NCBI GenBank assembly: GCA_964580715.1
Contig: CAZOKU010000002.1
Coordinates: 531 to 64,530, forward strand
Direction of reading: 5' to 3'
Length of the DNA: 64,000 nt
DNA from: an uncultured Rhizobium sp.
GTDB taxonomy: Bacteria; Pseudomonadota; Alphaproteobacteria; Rickettsiales; UBA1997
How positions within the stretch are numbered: the first letter of the stretch is position 1; the number at the start of each line of letters is the position of its first letter. A program made the translations under genes and the position numbers. This document shows, piece by piece, positions 9,736 to 43,393 of this stretch. A model generated the notes under the pieces. The model saw only the letters and a list, made by a program, of their open reading frames with translations, searched no databases and was not told the DNA's origin.

Positions 9736-10056
9736 ATGAAAAAATTATTTTTTTTACTTTTCATTTCCATTTCCACCCAAACCTTCGCTCAAGAAAAAGA
9801 ATATCTAGTTCAAATCAAAGATCACCAATTTCAACCATCAGCGCTTGAAGTTCCTGCGAATGTCGAATTTAAATTAATCGTTGAAAATCTTGATAAAACC
9901 TTAGAAGAATTTGAAAGCAACGATCTAAAAAAAGAAAAACTTATTGGCGGAGGCAAAAAAATCACCATCAAAATCCAAGCACTAAAAACTGGCGAATATA
10001 AATTCTTCGGCGATTTTCACCAAAAAACTGCCCAAGGCAAAATTATTGTGAAATAA
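9736..10056 (+). CDS. Secreted cupredoxin-fold-like small protein
   Basis: 106 aa. Signal peptide MKKLFFLLFISISTQTFA. The pattern HQFQPSALEVPANVEFKLIVENLD...GEYKFFGDFH..AQGKIIV resembles cupredoxin_1-type domains, but the usual Cys copper ligand is not evident. Confidence 0.45.
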   Translation: MKKLFFLLFISISTQTFAQEKEYLVQIKDHQFQPSALEVPANVEFKLIVENLDKTLEEFESNDLKKEKLIGGGKKITIKIQALKTGEYKFFGDFHQKTAQGKIIVK

Positions 10057-10094
10057 TATAAAACCCCCAGCATCACTCTGGTTGCAGACATAGT

Positions 10095-10138
10095 CCAGTT
10101 GCTGTACGGAGTCTCGACTCCGTCCACACTTTCATATC
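10095..10138. repeat. Family-A palindromic element (variant core ACGGAGTC-TCG-GACTCCGT)
   Basis: ccagttgctgtacggagtctcgactccgtccacactttcatatc shares the GCTG...stem-loop...CAC..TTCAT(A/G)(T)C layout with the other copies. Confidence 0.75.
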
Positions 10139-10173
10139 CTAAAATAATTTTTTAGAAAAATTTATCTCAACCG

Positions 10174-11439
10174 CTAAACCCCCAGCATCACCAACTGATC
10201 AATCCTTACCACAACTCTCCTCGCAATATTTTCAGAACTTTCAATCACCTCAAAAGCACGCCCCGACATAGATTTTACCATATCAGTATCTTCAAAAAAC
10301 TTCTTAACCACCACAGCAATTTCTGCGCCAGAATCAAGCATCACACAAGCATTTTGCCGCTCTAACTTTTCATAAATTTCTTTAAAATTAAAAACTCCAC
10401 GACCAGAAATAACCGCACATCCAAGCTTAATTGGCTCGAATGGATTATGCCCACCAATTTCAAAAAGCGAACCTCCAATAAAAGAAAAATTACAAAGCGA
10501 ATAAAAAATTCCCATTTCGCCTAAAGTGTCAACCAAGTAAATTTCTGTAGAATCTTCAATCTTTCCTGCAACACTTCTTTGCGCAATTTTGAAATTTCTC
10601 AACAAAGCCTTAACTTCCTCTGCGCGATTTGGATGACGCAAAACTAAAATTGTTAATAAATCTGGAAATTCACTTTTTAACTTCTTATGCGCCGCAATCA
10701 CATATTCCTCTTCACCCTTGTGAGTGCTTGCTGCAAGCCACATTTTTCTTCCGCCAATTTGTGTTTTTATTTTTTCTAACTCATCAAAATTAACCGATAA
10801 ATTTCTTGCTTGCGACTTCAAATTTCCATAAAATAAAACTTCCTGCTTGGTCAATTTTGCAAATCGCTCTTTACTTTCAACCATCTGCACAAAAATCGCT
10901 GCAAAATAATCAAAAATATTAAAATTAATTTTCTTAGCAAAATGCCATTTTTTAAAAGATTTTTCTGACATTCTAGCATTCACTAAAAAACTTAAAATTC
11001 CACGATTGCGCGCTTCAAAAACAAGGTTTGGCCAAATTTCTGATTCAACAAAAATTGCCACTCTTGGCTTCCAAAAATCAAAAAAACTTTTAACGCAAAA
11101 ATATGAATCAATCGGCAAAAATTGATGCAAAACTCTGCCTTTAAATTCTGGCAATTTTTTATCTAAAATCGCTGCAGAAGTGAGAGTTGTAGTGGTAAAT
11201 AAAATCGTAATTTTTGGCGAAAAATTTAATAATTCTTCAATCAAAACCATCGCTGAATTTGCCTCACCAACACTCACGGCATGAAGCCAAACAATGTGAC
11301 CTTCTGGCCTCTTCACCGAAGACTTCCCCAGTCTTTCAAGAAAACGTTTTTTATCTTCTTTTTTATTAAGCAACCGCCAAAACAAATAAACCAACAAAAG
11401 CGGGTAAATAACAATCGAAATAATACGGTAAAAAATCAT
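10174..11439 (-). CDS. waaA: 3-deoxy-D-manno-octulosonic acid (Kdo) transferase WaaA/KdtA
   Basis: 421 aa. N-terminal membrane anchor, VWLHAVSVGE motif, and a glycosyltransferase N/C layout (GGSL...GGHNPFEP). Confidence 0.85.
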   Translation of the reverse strand: MIFYRIISIVIYPLLLVYLFWRLLNKKEDKKRFLERLGKSSVKRPEGHIVWLHAVSVGEANSAMVLIEELLNFSPKITILFTTTTLTSAAILDKKLPEFKGRVLHQFLPIDSYFCVKSFFDFWKPRVAIFVESEIWPNLVFEARNRGILSFLVNARMSEKSFKKWHFAKKINFNIFDYFAAIFVQMVESKERFAKLTKQEVLFYGNLKSQARNLSVNFDELEKIKTQIGGRKMWLAASTHKGEEEYVIAAHKKLKSEFPDLLTILVLRHPNRAEEVKALLRNFKIAQRSVAGKIEDSTEIYLVDTLGEMGIFYSLCNFSFIGGSLFEIGGHNPFEPIKLGCAVISGRGVFNFKEIYEKLERQNACVMLDSGAEIAVVVKKFFEDTDMVKSMSGRAFEVIESSENIARRVVVRIDQLVMLGV

Positions 11440-11448
11440 GATATAAAT

Positions 11449-12870
11449 TTAAAAACCTCCAGCAGATTTAATAAAAAATCGCTTCAAAGGCCCGATTTTG
11501 TTCACCAAACCAAGCCCAACATCACGCATGGTTTTAAGAGAAAAACTCTTGGTTTCAAAAATAGAATTCAAAACATCAGTTGCAATCAGCATTTTTCTTG
11601 CCCCAATTTTTGCTTTTTTATTGTAAGAATCAATTACACTTTGCGCCGAAATATCAAATCCACAAAATAAATTTTCTCTAATTAATTCTTGCAAAATTTT
11701 AATTCCTGAAATTGCTAAATTAAAACCTTGCCCCGCAATTGGGTGCACACCACAAGCGGCGTCTCCAATCAAAAGCATTTTTTTGTAATAAAAATCTTTC
11801 GCCTCAATTGCAATCAATGGATAGGAAAATTTTTCAGAAATAATTTTTATTTCTCCTAAAACATTTTCCATTTTTTTGCTTAACTGATGCGTGAAATTTT
11901 CTTCATCCAGCTTCAAAATTGCTTTCGCCTCCTCACTAGGAAAAATCCACACAATCGATGATTGATTATGATCTTTAAAAGGCAAAATCGCAAGTGGCCC
12001 ACCTGGCAAAAACTTTTCATGCGCAATATTTTGATGTGATTTTTCGTGAGAAATATTAAACACAATTGCAGTTTGATGATAGTTTTTTACAGTTGTTGGA
12101 ATTTGATATGTCTCGCGAAGCTTAGAAAACCTGCCATCACAAGCTAGGATTAGTTTTGATGATAAGGTTGTTTTGTTATCAAGTTTTATTTGGCATGAAC
12201 CTCCAGGCGGGATTGCAAATCCCGCCTGAGCAAGGATTCTTCCATCATCAAGTTTGATTTGGCGTGAACGTGAGGACTGGGTCAGAGACCCATTCCTGCT
12301 CAAGGTCTCACATTCAGGATCCTGTTGCACAACAGGATCTCTGACGGTGTCCTCACGTTCATTTTCCATCCGTTGCTGGACGGGGTTTGCAACCCCGTCC
12401 TCACGTTCATGCCTCTGCTGCAGGACTGGTTCTGTGACGGCGTCATCACGTTCATGCAAAAATTTAATCTCCTCATAAAAATTCGGACAAAAAACCGTAA
12501 CATTTTTCCGCTTCAAAACCTCATCCCGCAAAGCATTATGAATATGATAATTCTCAATAATCATCCCAAAATCCCCTTCCACTTCAGACCCAATAAAATC
12601 AAGGATAAACGGCGATTTTTGATCAGTAATTTTTATATCAGAAATCTTCCCCGCCTCTTTTTCAAGCCGCTCAAAAATTCCAATCTCTTCAAACAATTTC
12701 AAAGAAGCCGAAGATATCGCATAAGCCCTTCCATCGCGCTTGCGATCATGATTCAAAATATCTTGCCTTTCCACTATCGCAATTTTCAAATCATCAGAAA
12801 CCACAGCTAAAGCAAGAGCTGACGTCATCCCCGCAAATGATCCACCAATTATTATTATGTCAAAATTCAT
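11449..12870 (-). CDS. FAD-dependent ubiquinone-biosynthesis hydroxylase (UbiH/UbiF/COQ6 family) carrying an approximately 90-aa repeat-derived insertion
   Basis: 473 aa. FDIIIIGGSFAGMTSA dinucleotide-binding motif, ACDGRFSKLR, and GDAACGVHPIAGQGFNLA, the family signature. The internal stretch ERDDAVTEPVLQQRHEREDGVANPVQQRMENEREDTVRDPVVQQ...AQAGFAIPPGGSCQ is encoded by family-A elements. Confidence 0.85.
   Translation of the reverse strand: MNFDIIIIGGSFAGMTSALALAVVSDDLKIAIVERQDILNHDRKRDGRAYAISSASLKLFEEIGIFERLEKEAGKISDIKITDQKSPFILDFIGSEVEGDFGMIIENYHIHNALRDEVLKRKNVTVFCPNFYEEIKFLHERDDAVTEPVLQQRHEREDGVANPVQQRMENEREDTVRDPVVQQDPECETLSRNGSLTQSSRSRQIKLDDGRILAQAGFAIPPGGSCQIKLDNKTTLSSKLILACDGRFSKLRETYQIPTTVKNYHQTAIVFNISHEKSHQNIAHEKFLPGGPLAILPFKDHNQSSIVWIFPSEEAKAILKLDEENFTHQLSKKMENVLGEIKIISEKFSYPLIAIEAKDFYYKKMLLIGDAACGVHPIAGQGFNLAISGIKILQELIRENLFCGFDISAQSVIDSYNKKAKIGARKMLIATDVLNSIFETKSFSLKTMRDVGLGLVNKIGPLKRFFIKSAGGF
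12178..12458. repeat. Cluster of five family-A palindromic elements in mixed orientation, all in frame within the UbiH-family gene
   Basis: Copies at about 12194-12235 (catgaacctccaggcgggattgcaaatcccgcctgagcaagg), 12262-12305, 12306-12362, 12368-12412 (ccgttgctggacggggtttgcaaccccgtcctcacgttcatgcc) and 12413-12456. Flanking direct repeat atcaagttt(t/g)atttggc(a/g)tgaac at 12178-12200 and 12247-12269. Confidence 0.9.
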
Positions 12871-17684: not shown

Positions 17685-19880
17685 TTAAACTGCTATAGTT
17701 GGAGCAGCAGCATGACCAGCAATTGGAGAAGAAACTTCACCCGCACAACTCGGCGAAGTAGAAGGAATATTATCAACTGGAGTATTATCAAGTTTTGTCT
17801 CAACCCTGCTATCTCCAGCCCGATAAGCCATAAGCAAACTCTCTGCCAAAATAGATTTTGCTCGATTAATTGCATCTTCTGCATAAGCCGAATCTACTAA
17901 AATTCTTTTTTTATTAACATTTTCTCCAGTTCTATGATCAAAAACTTCCACCTCTTGATCAAAAGTTTTAACCCCAGCAGTTTCTGCAGCATAAGCAGCA
18001 AATTCTCTTCTTAAAACTTTTTTTCCATCCGCAAGTAAACGAGAATATTGTGGATTAGATTCATTTAAAACATCAACAACACTTCCCACACCACCAATAG
18101 ATTCATAACCCAAATAAGCCGAAAACTTTTTCTGCATTGTTTTAAAAAGAGCTTGTTGACGTTCTCTGTTTTCTGTAATATTTTCATCAAGACCTTCTAA
18201 ATGCGCTACAGCTCTTTTGATAACTTCATCTTTGTCTGCATCTTCACCTAGACTATCTTTAATTGCAATTATAGTATTAACAATATCTCCACTAAACAAA
18301 TCCTTAGCTATCGTTTTCTTATCACCATCCAAAATAAATTCCACTAATTTAAGCTTACCAAAAGCTTCCTCAATAGCTTCAAATTGCATTTCCGCAATTT
18401 TTACCGCCATTTCTTTCTTTCTTTCATCATTAGCTTGACCAAATTGTGCCAAAATATCTCTTAATTTATCCACCGAAGAATCTGTAATCTTATTTTTTGT
18501 CTTATAATGTTCCACTTCTTCATCCAAATGCTTAATCAAATAACCACCAGCAATAACAAATAAAAGCACTGGTTTCATAACTTGCACAGTTGAAAACAGC
18601 ATCCTTCCAATCTCATTATTAAAAAGCATAGTTTCAATATCACCAATATCAGAAATTAAAGGCACCTTATCCAGAAATCCCTCCACTAAATAATCAAGAT
18701 GCAACACTTCATATAACTTACCAAGACCAATCGGCAAATGCTTCGGAGCTTCCGCCACAGCTGCAGAAAATGGACCATCAAAAAGTGGACCAATAAGATC
18801 AGATATAATATCAAAATAATCAAGAAATGGAACAATAAAACCAAAAGGTGTAAAAAAAACTAAAACTGAAGTTATAGCTCTTTTCAAGATTATAGAATTA
18901 ATCTTATCCATCACTCCACTTTGATATTCAGAAGCAGATTCTTTAAACACCCCAGAAATCTTAGCATTTTCTTCATCAGATAATTTTTTTCTACTGTCTT
19001 CCATTACCTGTCTGCACTCATTCACCAAATCTCTAAGACCTTGCTCTGACAATATACTTAAAAAATGCGAGTTTTGACTTCTTAAAATCATTTCAAGAAG
19101 TTCTGGATCAATATGCTCTAACCTTGATAATTCTTCTAACCTAACCCTAGCAATTCGATTTAACTTCTCTCTATTTTCTATAAATTTTGTACTTTCATGA
19201 ACTCCGGGATTTTTTCCCATCATCCTATCAAAAAAGTTATTAAACCGAACGCTTAAATTTCCGGGAATATGTGATGTTGAAACCGGCGCTTCTATTATTT
19301 CTTTGATTTCTTGTAATGAAATGTCTTTTTGATCAAACACATCTTGCAACAACAGATCACATTTTTTTATTTCTTCTCCAACTACAAATTTTTCTCTTTG
19401 AAGATTCATAGCATAAGAAAAACTAGGCGCTCTAAGATGAACCCCAGGATTTTCTATTTTTCTTAAAACTTTCGGACTTTCACTCAGGCTAGAATGTTCT
19501 CCCTTTGGATTCCACTTCCATTTATCAGCAACATCTTTTCTTTTACGTTCTGCAACTGCCATCTGATCAATGGCTTTTGGATCATATACTGCGCCAGACA
19601 TTGCGGCAAAAACTTCCCTTCTCTCTTTTTCTAAATTAATTTGGTCATCTTTAAGACTTTTTTTTCTTTCTAACAAAAACTCTAGTGATTTCAAACCTTG
19701 CAAAGCTTTTCTAGAACCAGCAATTTCATCAATTCTTGTTCGAAAACCCTCAAGAACTTCTCCTGGAGCATAAAAGTCAGATACTAAAGTTTTCACTCTT
19801 TCTTGTAATTGTTCTATTGCTTCGCTTTGATCGCTTCGAATCGCTCCTGTTCTTCCTAAATTTTGAGAATCTCGAGACAT
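17685..19880 (-). CDS. Hypothetical 731-aa protein with central hydrophobic hairpins (orphan)
   Basis: Long uninterrupted ORF with no signal peptide. Coiled-coil-like charged N- and C-terminal regions. Hydrophobic segments ITSVLVFFTPFGFIVPFL and VMKPVLLFVIAGGYLI. Repeated NPGVH motif (ENPGVHLRAP, KNPGVHESTK). I recognise no family motif. Confidence 0.6.
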   Translation of the reverse strand: MSRDSQNLGRTGAIRSDQSEAIEQLQERVKTLVSDFYAPGEVLEGFRTRIDEIAGSRKALQGLKSLEFLLERKKSLKDDQINLEKERREVFAAMSGAVYDPKAIDQMAVAERKRKDVADKWKWNPKGEHSSLSESPKVLRKIENPGVHLRAPSFSYAMNLQREKFVVGEEIKKCDLLLQDVFDQKDISLQEIKEIIEAPVSTSHIPGNLSVRFNNFFDRMMGKNPGVHESTKFIENREKLNRIARVRLEELSRLEHIDPELLEMILRSQNSHFLSILSEQGLRDLVNECRQVMEDSRKKLSDEENAKISGVFKESASEYQSGVMDKINSIILKRAITSVLVFFTPFGFIVPFLDYFDIISDLIGPLFDGPFSAAVAEAPKHLPIGLGKLYEVLHLDYLVEGFLDKVPLISDIGDIETMLFNNEIGRMLFSTVQVMKPVLLFVIAGGYLIKHLDEEVEHYKTKNKITDSSVDKLRDILAQFGQANDERKKEMAVKIAEMQFEAIEEAFGKLKLVEFILDGDKKTIAKDLFSGDIVNTIIAIKDSLGEDADKDEVIKRAVAHLEGLDENITENRERQQALFKTMQKKFSAYLGYESIGGVGSVVDVLNESNPQYSRLLADGKKVLRREFAAYAAETAGVKTFDQEVEVFDHRTGENVNKKRILVDSAYAEDAINRAKSILAESLLMAYRAGDSRVETKLDNTPVDNIPSTSPSCAGEVSSPIAGHAAAPTIAV

Positions 19881-41395: not shown

Positions 41396-42017
41396 AAACT
41401 TTTACTAGCTGATTAATCTCTTGGTTTTTAACCTTAAGAGAAGTTCGGTTAACCACTAAGTGAGAGGTTACATCAATTATTTTTTTTAGTTCAAACATTT
41501 CATTTTCAATTAAAGTTTTTCCACTGCTAACTAAATCTAAAATAAAATCACACAAACCAAGCGCCGGCGCAATTTCAATTGATCCGTTAAGCTTGATTGC
41601 TTCAGTTTGAACCCCATTTGCTGAAAAATATTTTTCTGCAATGTTGGTATATTTCGTGGCAATTCTGATATGACTAATTTTATTTAAATCAAGCTCAATA
41701 TTTTTTTTTGCCGCAATTGACAAACGACATTTGCCAATTTTTAAATCAAGAACTGGAAAAATTTCTGGTGAAGAAAATTCTTCTAAAACGTCAAGCCCAC
41801 AAATTCCAAGATCCGCCGCGCCAAATTTTACAAAAGTTGCCACATCAAAACTTCTAACTTTTACAATCTCCAAATTTTCTATATTGGTTTTAAAAATTAA
41901 CTTTCTTGCCGAATCATCAAAAAAATCAGCTTCCGGAACAATTCCCGCTCTTTCAAACAAAGGATAAAGCTCAGATAAAATTCTTCCTTTTGGAACTGCA
42001 AATAAAATTTTTTTCAT
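41382..42017 (-). CDS. hisG: ATP phosphoribosyltransferase, short form (HisG)
   Basis: 211 aa. LFAVPKGRI, VRSFDVATFVKFGAADLGICGLDVL, IATKYTNIAEKYF and LVSSGKTLIENEM. No other his genes are adjacent. Its stop overlaps the start of the 994-aa gene by 14 nt. Confidence 0.85.
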   Translation of the reverse strand: MKKILFAVPKGRILSELYPLFERAGIVPEADFFDDSARKLIFKTNIENLEIVKVRSFDVATFVKFGAADLGICGLDVLEEFSSPEIFPVLDLKIGKCRLSIAAKKNIELDLNKISHIRIATKYTNIAEKYFSANGVQTEAIKLNGSIEIAPALGLCDFILDLVSSGKTLIENEMFELKKIIDVTSHLVVNRTSLKVKNQEINQLVKVFDVL

Positions 42018-42043
42018 ATTTAAAAATTCTTATAATAACCTTT

Positions 42044-42084
42044 GGTGCTAGTCGGGGTCTCCTGACCCCGACTGACTGTTCATT
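42044..42084. repeat. Family-A-like palindromic element between hisG and the OMP gene
   Basis: ggtgctagtcggggtctcctgaccccgactgactgttcatt, with core GTCGGGGTC-TCC-TGACCCCGAC. Confidence 0.8.
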
Positions 42085-42178
42085 TTCCTATCAAAAATTG
42101 GCATTTATAATAACTTAAAATAAACCTAATAACCTAGAAAAAAAGCCGCTACCGCAAAAAAAATAATTTTTTCCATGT

Positions 42179-43393
42179 TTAAAAATTCTTATAATAACGA
42201 AGCAACAGCCCCAATCCATTAACTTTATTAGAACCAGTTTTAAAGTCATTATATTGATTTTGATAACCAACTTGCACTAAAAAACGATCAAATAAAATGT
42301 TTTTATCAAATTCATAACCAACTGAAATCTCTTTCAAAGATTGATCAAATCCATATTGATATGGCTTGTTATTGTGTCGAGCACTATATCCAAGCGTCAC
42401 ATTCCAATTACGACAAAAACGATTAACCGCATTAGCAGTTAAATAGTTTTCATCATTGCCACGACGCCCCAAAACATTTTTCAGCAAAGCATATTCAACC
42501 AAAAAATCTGTATCAACTTTTTCATGAGACGCAAATTTATAATTCATTCCCGCCACAACTCCTGTTTGGTTTGACACATTGTAATCCAAACTAGCATTAG
42601 CATTAACCGCTAAATTCATATAACCAAAATGATAAGTCAATTTTTCTCTTTCACCAAAATCAAATTTAATATCAAGCCCAATAGTGTAAGATTTTAAAGA
42701 TCTCGTATCACCAGGAACAGCATCTTGCTTGCGTTCCGACTCTCTGCTTGTAATCAAAGAATTATCCAAATTTTTGCGATCATTAGTGAAGCTAGAAAAA
42801 CTAAATTCATATTCACCAGTCTTTTTTAAATTTCCTAAACGATAAACTCCACCAAAACCAAGTTTTTCAGTTTGTCGATAGTTGTTTGCAATAAGATGGT
42901 TCCAAATGCCGCGATTCCAGCGCCAAGCAGTTCCAAAATTTGGATTAAACTTTCCCGCAAGAAGTGCAAATTTTTTCCTATCATAAGAAATGTTTAATTC
43001 TCTTGCATAAATTCCTTCTGAATCAAAAGCAAAATCGCCAGCATTATGCGACACTTGAGTTATTCCATTAGTTCTTCCATCTTGGTTCACAACTTCCATA
43101 ATAAACTGGCCATTTAATGCCAAATGCTTGGTAAGGTTAAGCGACGAAAAAAGACGGCCTCTTGCAGCAATATTTCTATATTCACTAGCTTTATCAGTGG
43201 CGCGATATTGATCATTAACATTTACATCAAAAATCAATTGATTAGAAAATTTTGGAAAAAAAGCCTCACCACTTTCTGTTTCTTTATTATCCTCTTCAAG
43301 CAAATGCCTGAAAGTGTTGATCTTAACATCTTCAGCAAATAACTTGAAAGGAAAGAAAATAAAAACTAAAACTATTAAAAAATTCTTTTTCAT
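42179..43393 (-). CDS. Putative outer-membrane beta-barrel protein (porin-like)
   Basis: 404 aa. Signal peptide MKKNFLIVLVFIFFPFKLFA, alternating-hydrophobicity strands throughout and a C-terminal ...LLLRYYKNF with terminal Phe. Confidence 0.5.
   Translation of the reverse strand: MKKNFLIVLVFIFFPFKLFAEDVKINTFRHLLEEDNKETESGEAFFPKFSNQLIFDVNVNDQYRATDKASEYRNIAARGRLFSSLNLTKHLALNGQFIMEVVNQDGRTNGITQVSHNAGDFAFDSEGIYARELNISYDRKKFALLAGKFNPNFGTAWRWNRGIWNHLIANNYRQTEKLGFGGVYRLGNLKKTGEYEFSFSSFTNDRKNLDNSLITSRESERKQDAVPGDTRSLKSYTIGLDIKFDFGEREKLTYHFGYMNLAVNANASLDYNVSNQTGVVAGMNYKFASHEKVDTDFLVEYALLKNVLGRRGNDENYLTANAVNRFCRNWNVTLGYSARHNNKPYQYGFDQSLKEISVGYEFDKNILFDRFLVQVGYQNQYNDFKTGSNKVNGLGLLLRYYKNF

Follow-up and report, generated by a model that had tools for sequence, protein, structure and literature searches.

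Long and variable direct repeats around a minority of REP-like hairpin repeats at gene junctions in an uncultured Rickettsiales bacterium

The insertion of repetitive extragenic palindromic (REP) sequences and REPINs, like that of IS200/IS605-type elements, is described as leaving no target duplication. Classical MITEs (miniature transposable elements with inverted repeats) such as Correia, ERIC and Nezha generate a short duplication of fixed length, 2–10 bp, that is set by the parent transposase, and Cas1-type integration, as in CRISPR spacer acquisition or casposons, gives a ruler-set duplication of 14–15 bp or one repeat length. The insertion sequences (IS) IS1634 and IS1549 are 1.5–2 kb elements encoding a DDE transposase. 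Long target duplications that vary from 8 to 514 bp have been reported for these two, and PMC2266710, which summarizes them (Vilei 1999; Plikaytis 1998), offers no mechanistic model. The genomes that contain CGTC-tagged REPs include genes for REP-associated tyrosine transposases (RAYTs), but these are never flanked by the repeat and there is no dedicated transposase; the paper describing them is silent on target duplications (Di Nocera, De Gregorio, Rocco 2013, PMC3733652). For repeats of this kind and for the Rickettsia palindromic elements (RPEs), which are reviewed in PMC10969869, not even a candidate enzyme has been accepted (PMC3733652). The mobility of REP- and RPE-like hairpins is a long-standing open question, and our literature searches turned up no account of REP, RPE or MITE-like repeats with long target duplications. 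Here, we examine a hairpin repeat, family A, that lies between two copies of a 16 bp sequence at the 3′-end of waaA in an uncultured Rhizobium sp. that GTDB places in the Rickettsiales (UBA1997). The locus is in a stretch of 64 000 nucleotides, hereafter the window, that corresponds to positions 531–64 530 of contig CAZOKU010000002.1 (C2) in GenBank assembly GCA_964580715.1, so that a C2 coordinate is the window position plus 530. The assembly is 1.43 Mb in 74 contigs, with a G+C content of 35.7% and a completeness of 85%, and its relatives point to a freshwater alphaproteobacterium of the Rickettsiales type.

We consider it slightly better than an even chance (approximately 0.55) that a 99 bp block found at this locus is a single REP-like family-A insertion into the junction between a cupredoxin-like gene and waaA, and that the 16–17 bp repeat bounding it is the target-site duplication (TSD) of the same event. 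The cupredoxin-like gene (9736–10056, forward strand, 106 aa, stop codon TAA at 10054–10056; Pfam Cupredoxin_1, E=1.9e-31) and waaA, which encodes a 421 aa Kdo transferase (10174–11439, reverse strand; Glycos_transf_N, E=4.6e-52; 57–65% identity to orthologs), were identified as open reading frames (ORFs) and are convergent. As a reading of the sequence alone, here called the sequence-only reading, had noted, the 16-mer AAACCCCCAGCATCAC is present at 10061–10076 and, without a single difference, at 10176–10191. There is no third site in the window even when two mismatches are allowed, and two matches were reached in none of 100 shuffles. The first copy is a relic of the waaA 3′-end and extends to 17 bp (10060–10076) if one change at 10060 is allowed. 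The second, on the reverse strand, is functional. It had been taken to carry the C-terminus and stop codon of waaA, and it does encode the residues V-M-L-G-V, but of the stop codon TAG (10176–10174), which straddles the boundary, it supplies only the initial T, the AG belonging to the end of the inserted block.

The block itself, at 10077–10175 and read on the forward strand, is close to the 100 bp first estimated and is made up of a half-element, a hairpin and a 40 bp unique tail ending in ..TCTCAACCGCT. The partial half-element, GTTGCAGAC, is at 10081–10089. The hairpin match found with nhmmer covers 10098–10135 (C2:10628–10665), slightly less than the 10095–10138 proposed previously. Its stem, GTACGGAGT/ACTCCGTCC, pairs at eight of nine positions, with the conserved sequences TGC lying 5′ of it and TTCAT 3′ of it. 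Apart from low-complexity matches, no further copy of the tail or filler was found in the genome. A canonical terminator was looked for in the insert and none was found, and a role as a terminator was rejected for that reason. As an independently assembled Logan contig (L024, run SRR11567520) is identical across the entire structure, we conclude that it is not a mis-assembly. The 16 bp repeat is also shorter than the assembly k-mers and too short for a mis-join.

No strain-level relative was found in the collections searched, where the best waaA identity was 65% among genome contigs and 61% among metagenome contigs, and an exact-protein look-up for closer relatives returned only the same population. 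Comparisons with relatives, at 61–77% amino acid identity, were therefore made at the level of proteins and gene order rather than nucleotide for nucleotide, and it is from these that the empty site is deduced. The closest waaA ortholog (L001) also encodes 421 aa and ends in ..IDQILMLQY, compared with ..IDQLVMLGV here. In most relatives waaA and the cupredoxin gene converge, and the two genes abut with a gap of 0 bp in L012 and overlap by 14 bp in L004. Elsewhere the gap is 155 bp and includes a family-A hairpin (L013), or holds 0.4–3.2 kb of inserted genes. The ancestral junction here would have been the cupredoxin stop TAA, then TA, then T and AAACCCCCAGCATCAC, with a waaA stop codon TAA at 10059–10061, 2 bp from the cupredoxin stop. 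This reconstruction implies a 17 bp duplication and one later change at 10060.

The waaA|cupredoxin junction (10057–10175 in the window; L001–L013 in relatives) is an insertion hot spot in the genus, with different large ORFs in different genomes. The waaA ortholog in L013 has a tandem GEMVGEMAGEMGL repeat at its end that is followed by the family-A hairpin, and from its sequence this may be another rewritten waaA C-terminus.

The sequence-only reading had pointed to similar duplications at two further sites in the window, and both were found to consist of host sequence. At 12178–12192 and 12247–12261, 14 of 15 bases are identical, and this is the core of a diverged 30 bp duplication in a UbiH-like gene on the reverse strand. 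The better-preserved copy (12233–12261) encodes (R)QIKLDDGRIL, and the other (12163–12192) encodes QIKLDNKTTL and runs on into the host sequence SSKLILACDG. Between them, an in-frame family-A hairpin (12193–12232; nhmmer match C2:12723–12762) is translated as AQAGFAIPPGGSC, so that the protein has RQIKLDDGRIL and QIKLDNKTTLSSKLILACDG on either side of the hairpin peptide. In 11 UbiH orthologs the corresponding segment occurs once, as ..KLDDGKILxSKLLLACDG (also seen as ..VKLDDGKILxSKLLLACDG). The possibility that the 12178/12247 pair represents the 3′ tail of the element itself, as many copies have a CAAAC-like tail, was ruled out because these orthologs show both copies to be host KLDDGKIL.

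The other pair, originally placed at 41998/42154, is part of a duplication of 45–48 bp (41995–42039 and 42151–42198, both on the reverse strand; approximately 85–90% identity) at the junction of a porin-like gene encoding 404 aa and hisG (Pfam HisG, E=1.7e-48). The copy at 42151–42198 includes the working ..RYYKNF end of the porin-like gene (stop codon 42181–42179), AC, and a relic hisG start, ATGGAAAAAATTATT.. The copy at 41995–42039 includes the working hisG start codon (42017–42015), the first hisG codons and a relic of the ..YYKNF end with its stop codon. Between them are a family-A hairpin on the forward strand (42043–42083; nhmmer match C2:42573–42613; stem AGTCGGGGT/ACCCCGACT) and approximately 67 bp of unique filler that extends to 42150. 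The junction thus occurs twice here, one copy ending the upstream gene and the other starting hisG. In three same-genus genomes it is found once, as ..RY(Y/Q)K(N/A)F and a stop codon, 3–4 bp, then ATG-KKI. The relic hisG start (MEKIIF..) opens a 16-codon ORF, MEKIIFFAVAAFFLGY, that begins 2 bp past the stop codon of the upstream gene and, on sequence grounds, might serve as a leader peptide or confuse gene callers. In L048 (G011:C163), this porin-like|hisG junction contains an insert of approximately 120 bp that is made of a different repeat (GGGATGGCCTTGTGCCATCC.., present twice), and this tight junction has therefore been struck independently by another repeat family.

An iterative nhmmer search of the whole assembly returned approximately 217 family-A matches at 139 loci, of which 76 hold a singlet, 50 a doublet and 13 a larger array. 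The unit is approximately 43 nt, ..TGC-N-[9 bp stem]-loop-[stem]-N4–5-TTCAT(GC). In an alignment of 58 copies, 96.4% of the stem cells are paired and eight of the nine pairs show compensatory changes; none of 500 shuffles equalled the real alignment in pairing and covariation, and slid registers were likewise far below it. The doublets, of 95–135 bp, are inverted pairs that face one another as in REPINs. In same-genus relatives, 60 element loci were sampled, and +/− pairs of 95–135 bp were found at 49 of 56 sampled loci. One subfamily, GGACGGGGT..ACCCCGTCC, has CGTC at the stem end (CCGTCC), while the commonest, GGGCGGAAT..ATTCCGCCC, lacks it and ends in CCGCCC. Copies also occur in frame within genes, and five are in the UbiH-like gene at 12150–12470. 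With a covariance model, at least 148 copies were counted here, 143, 124, 84, 53 and 31 in five relatives, and none in five others. Such a patchy copy number within one genus is the pattern of mobile DNA.

When the 130–150 bp on each side of every family-A locus were compared with random positions of the same spacing, gapped local alignments scoring at least 30 were found at 12 of 130 loci and at 6 of 600 control positions, and exact repeats of at least 14 bp at 6 of 130 and 11 of 3000, respectively. One of the matches, in contig C17, is element-internal sequence and was left out of the Fisher tests, in which the excess over random was nonetheless clear (11/130 versus 6/600, p=1.8e-5, and 5/130 versus 11/3000, p=3.5e-4). 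Exact repeats of at least 16 bp were found at 3.8% of element loci and 0.2% of control positions, and AT-rich matches of 9–11 bp were common in the controls. Overall, flanking direct repeats are approximately 10 times commoner at family-A loci than at random positions. A hit-by-hit repeat of the survey in which the other elements were masked brought in one more case, that inside the UbiH-like gene.

Duplications of host sequence were found at ubiB|acs (C27:14329/14432, 42/42), between convergent genes (C52:3566/3675, 28/28), at the end of msrA (C4:50558/50695, 26/28), at a stop/start overlap before cmk (C24:13395/13481, 24/26), at aspS|aminotransferase (C38:6060/6133, 13/13) and at C3:21340/21399 (11/11). 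The waaA/cupredoxin (C2:10591/10706, 16–17 bp) and hisG (C2:42525/42681, 45–48 bp) sites of the window also appear in this set, as do the end of pyrD (C46:2115/2275, 36 bp), the start of xthA (C4:45257/45377, 26/31), the end of dxs (C37:9482/9598, approximately 36 bp) and another stop/start overlap (C39:14016/14114, approximately 28 bp). Gene identities were confirmed with Pfam. The duplications in this genome are 11, 13, 16–17, 26, 28, 28, approximately 30, 31, 36, 42 and 45–48 bp, and those in relatives are 22, 37–39 and approximately 128–145 bp. No short duplication of fixed length was found, and the view that 16 bp is beyond the 2–10 bp of MITEs and IS held up. The identity of the duplicates spans 100% to approximately 70% among loci, a spread that, judged from sequence divergence, would reflect a range of ages.

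In the orientation of the element, the duplication either abuts the 5′-end (..TGC..) within 1–6 bp or follows a partial half-element, and on the 3′ side it comes after a tail that is typically approximately 18 nt. Clean inserts are therefore discrete, at approximately 60 bp in C27 (61 bp), C38 and C24 (60 bp each), as against 81 bp in C52 and 99 bp at waaA. In the three perfect cases (C27, C52 and waaA), no microhomology was found between the insert ends and the target flanks, and no donor loci for the unique fillers were found in the assembly, which is 85% complete. Among the relatives, an intact inverted-end doublet in G006:C37 lies exactly between two copies of approximately 128–145 bp, with a core that is identical at 113 of 115 positions; the duplicated stretch spans the ends of a convergent gene pair with one phnA/yjdM-like member, and the two stop codons were ancestrally 2 bp apart. 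A 37–39 bp duplication spans an ATGA stop/start overlap in G011:C124, and G009:C51 has one of 22 bp.

Nearly all of the duplications include a stop or start codon, and the reconstructed ancestral junctions mostly have genes that are at most 9 bp apart or overlap (TAATG, ATGA or abutting convergent stops). Both genes are intact, as each uses the copy contiguous with its own body, and the unused halves decay, leaving relics such as the hisG start (MEKIIF..) and the PyrD, Dxs and XthA ends. At ubiB|acs, relatives have a single UbiB C-terminus, and its position relative to the acs start codon is between −14 and +16 bp; at the cmk junction, synteny is not conserved. The comparison of orthologous sites showed one copy in same-genus relatives at hisG, ubiB|acs and UbiH, and genes that abut or overlap at waaA/cupredoxin in two. 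The sequence-only reading would have been undermined by repeats no commoner than chance or by both copies being present at orthologous empty sites; the survey shows an excess and the relatives are single-copy. The duplication may be what lets insertions survive at stop/start overlaps. However, selection alone is not sufficient, as the waaA, C52 and UbiH insertions would be tolerable without it.

Family A shares with REPs and REPINs a short, G+C-rich hairpin whose flanking bases are conserved, hundreds of copies, a location at gene ends, a copy number that is patchy between related genomes, and singlets alongside frequent inverted doublets. It differs in that no RAYT-like gene is flanked by it, in its in-frame copies inside genes, and in that at least 12 loci have a duplication of 11–48 bp, although approximately 90% of copies have none. 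Alphaproteobacterial hairpins located downstream of genes and in frame inside them are also features of CGTC-tagged REPs and RPEs (the latter compared by description rather than sequence). As with the former, family A has no flanked transposase gene despite the presence of RAYT genes in the genome, and the CGTC motif is seen in one subfamily but not in the main one. The resemblance to MITEs extends to small size, lack of coding capacity, the inverted ends of doublets and direct repeats around some copies, but most family-A copies lack a duplication, the others have a long and variable one, and no parent IS was found. As for IS1634 and IS1549, direct-repeat length varies from copy to copy (11–48 bp here, approximately 128–145 bp in a relative). 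Unlike these, family A consists of non-coding 43 nt hairpins or 95–135 nt doublets, the assembly has no DDE_Tnp_1 match, and approximately 90% of copies lack the duplication. The more than ten-fold variation in length is also unlike Cas1-type integration.

Under the reading we favour, a single insertion with its own TSD, strand breaks would open the target 17 bp apart at waaA (11–48 bp apart at the other loci and approximately 128–145 bp in the relative), the element would be joined at both ends as a discrete unit, and filling in of the single-stranded interval would leave one copy on each side. Family A has landed mostly at ends of genes or where genes overlap in this compact genome. Of the two copies of the interval, one would then serve the gene on the left and one the gene on the right, with decay of the halves left unused. 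Duplication in one step from a long and variable stagger is suggested by analogy with IS1634 and IS1549. A broader proposal, which we consider less likely than not, is that hairpin repeats of the REP or CGTC-REP kind can insert through a route not described before, in which tens to more than 100 target bases are copied, for example at a flap formed in replication or at a long gap in one strand, and that this route is generic to hairpin DNA, here family A, a second palindrome (family B) and unique hairpins.

Several observations weigh against a single insertion with its own TSD. Only approximately 10% of family-A copies carry a long duplication and approximately 90% have none. An anchored test at 65 full-length singlets revealed no excess of 4–8 bp flanking repeats, and no target duplication was found at the ends of 91 doublets. 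Nearest-neighbour identity has a median of approximately 0.95 with and without a duplication (Mann–Whitney p=0.88); as the duplicated copies are not detectably younger, duplication at every insertion followed by decay was rejected. The long duplication is therefore a minority outcome that the model does not explain. Neither a reverse transcriptase nor a match to the IS4/IS1634-type DDE transposase (DDE_Tnp_1, PF01609) was found in the assembly, the latter in a search whose controls match in 9 of 14 genomes. Among the genus genomes G000–G015 and G026, small GIY-YIG genes (84–156 aa) are numerous in some that lack family-A hairpins, and they are absent from this assembly. A small GIY-YIG nuclease was rejected as a partner, as G007 combines five such genes with zero hairpins, and G000, G004 and G006, which lack the gene, have from 31 to at least 148 hairpins.

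Two RAYT-like Y1_Tnp genes are present in the assembly, which at 85% completeness may lack a cognate gene. A family-A match is near neither, and one of them is bracketed by the unrelated family-B palindrome. Y1_Tnp was rejected as the family-A enzyme because within the genus its occurrence and the number of hairpins do not go together, and no family-A hairpin was found within 1.5 kb of GIY-YIG or Y1 genes at any of 13 sampled loci. The family-B palindrome (GGTGTCAGACAC..) is found at 13 loci in the genome. In C22, copies at 18429–18466 and 19047–19084 flank a RAYT-like Y1 transposase gene (18476–19015, 179 aa), and C22:18429–19084 is, in its sequence organization, a REPtron-like unit for family B.

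The same footprint was found around other inserts in a scan for short-range direct repeats, a further point against the reading we favour. A palindrome of the RAYT-associated family B and 38 bp of filler lie between 31 bp direct repeats (29/31) at C26:1736–1879. At C30:11615–11740, the 5′-end of a tRNA-Met gene and 32 bp upstream of it are duplicated (48/48 bp) around a unique 30 bp insert with a small hairpin. At C61:19–230, a tRNA-fragment-like stretch, at which aragorn called no tRNA gene, has a similar duplication of approximately 60 bp on either side of an 88 bp insert that includes a hairpin with a 16 bp stem. That unrelated inserts have this footprint hints at a host-level rather than an element-specific process. 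The scan also returned runs of N between exact 55 bp repeats (C25:11762–12090 and C17:24110–24460), which are probably scaffolding or gap-closing artefacts rather than biology.

The main rival is template switching of the kind proposed as fork stalling and template switching (FoSTeS) or microhomology-mediated break-induced replication (MMBIR), or the re-ligation of a flap. The nascent strand would leave the target, copy or join a hairpin stretch, possibly a single-stranded excision product, and re-anneal 11–145 nt behind its point of departure, with duplication of the interval. Such a process would be generic to DNA hairpins, with no catalysis by a transposase specific to the element. The high variability of duplication length would follow, as would the variable unique fillers (10–75 bp) and partial half-elements beside the hairpin, and the footprint around the family-B palindrome (31 bp) and the unique hairpin at the tRNA 5′-end (48 bp) is the same. 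No dedicated enzyme was found, and a majority of copies without duplication is what an occasional side route predicts. However, the three perfect cases have no junction microhomology, joining at the element's 5′-end is precise in most cases, the G006 doublet has both of its inverted ends intact, and the fillers have no donor copy in the assembly, which is 85% complete. On balance, we regard template switching as unlikely.

The order of events could also be reversed, with slippage creating a duplication that is neutral because it uncouples overlapping genes, and a hairpin inserting later into dispensable sequence. Local direct repeats are present at approximately 0.4% of random positions, and a duplicated junction would be a harmless landing pad. 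But in all the clean cases (C27, 42/42; C52, 28/28; G006, approximately 128–145 bp; waaA) the element lies precisely where one full-length copy meets the other, whereas an insertion that came later would fall at any point of the dispensable sequence, and insertion into a pre-existing tandem duplication is disfavoured on this account. The short-range scan also returned no element-free tandem duplications of junctions, the background being mostly protein tandem repeats or scaffolding artefacts, and we judge this order very improbable. At least as improbable is unequal recombination within the element between two independent nearby insertions, one to the left of the interval on one chromosome and one to its right on another, to give interval-element-interval, or a variant, homology-facilitated illegitimate recombination with imported DNA of a relative. 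Family A is numerous, with copies alike enough for recombination, and some duplicate pairs have diverged as strongly (C37, C46 and C4:45333) as imported orthologous DNA would have. Against this, each parental insertion would truncate one gene (in G006, for instance, 128 bp within the phnA-like gene), leaving both parents unfit; two rare events would be required per site, at a dozen sites or more, and an imported origin is excluded for the youngest cases, which are 100% identical. Finally, we give almost no credence to the idea that the similarity arose by chance in AT-rich DNA or is an artefact of assembly. The genome is AT-rich, and short matches are frequent in the controls, but the 16-mer is partly G+C-rich (CCCCCAGC) and found only twice in the window. 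Exact repeats of at least 16 bp are in clear excess over controls, the Logan assembly is identical, and the assembly k-mers exceed the repeat in length.

The reproducible footprint described here, in which element ends are exact, microhomology is lacking and the target duplication is either missing or, if present, long and variable, constrains the chemistry by which such hairpins move, and it is predicted neither by simple IS200/IS605-type insertion nor by classical DDE cut-and-paste. It explains how selfish repeats come to lie on overlapping stop/start codons and abutting convergent junctions in compact genomes with neither gene inactivated. Gene ends have been rewritten, as seen in the new stop codon of waaA, the new C-terminal residues of UbiB, PyrD and Dxs and the duplicated peptide segments in UbiH, and the decaying pseudo-starts and pseudo-ends left by the duplications can mislead gene callers. 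If the undescribed route suggested above is indeed how they enter, hairpins would be able to colonise overlapping junctions, gene ends and even tRNA 5′-ends of compact genomes without killing the host.

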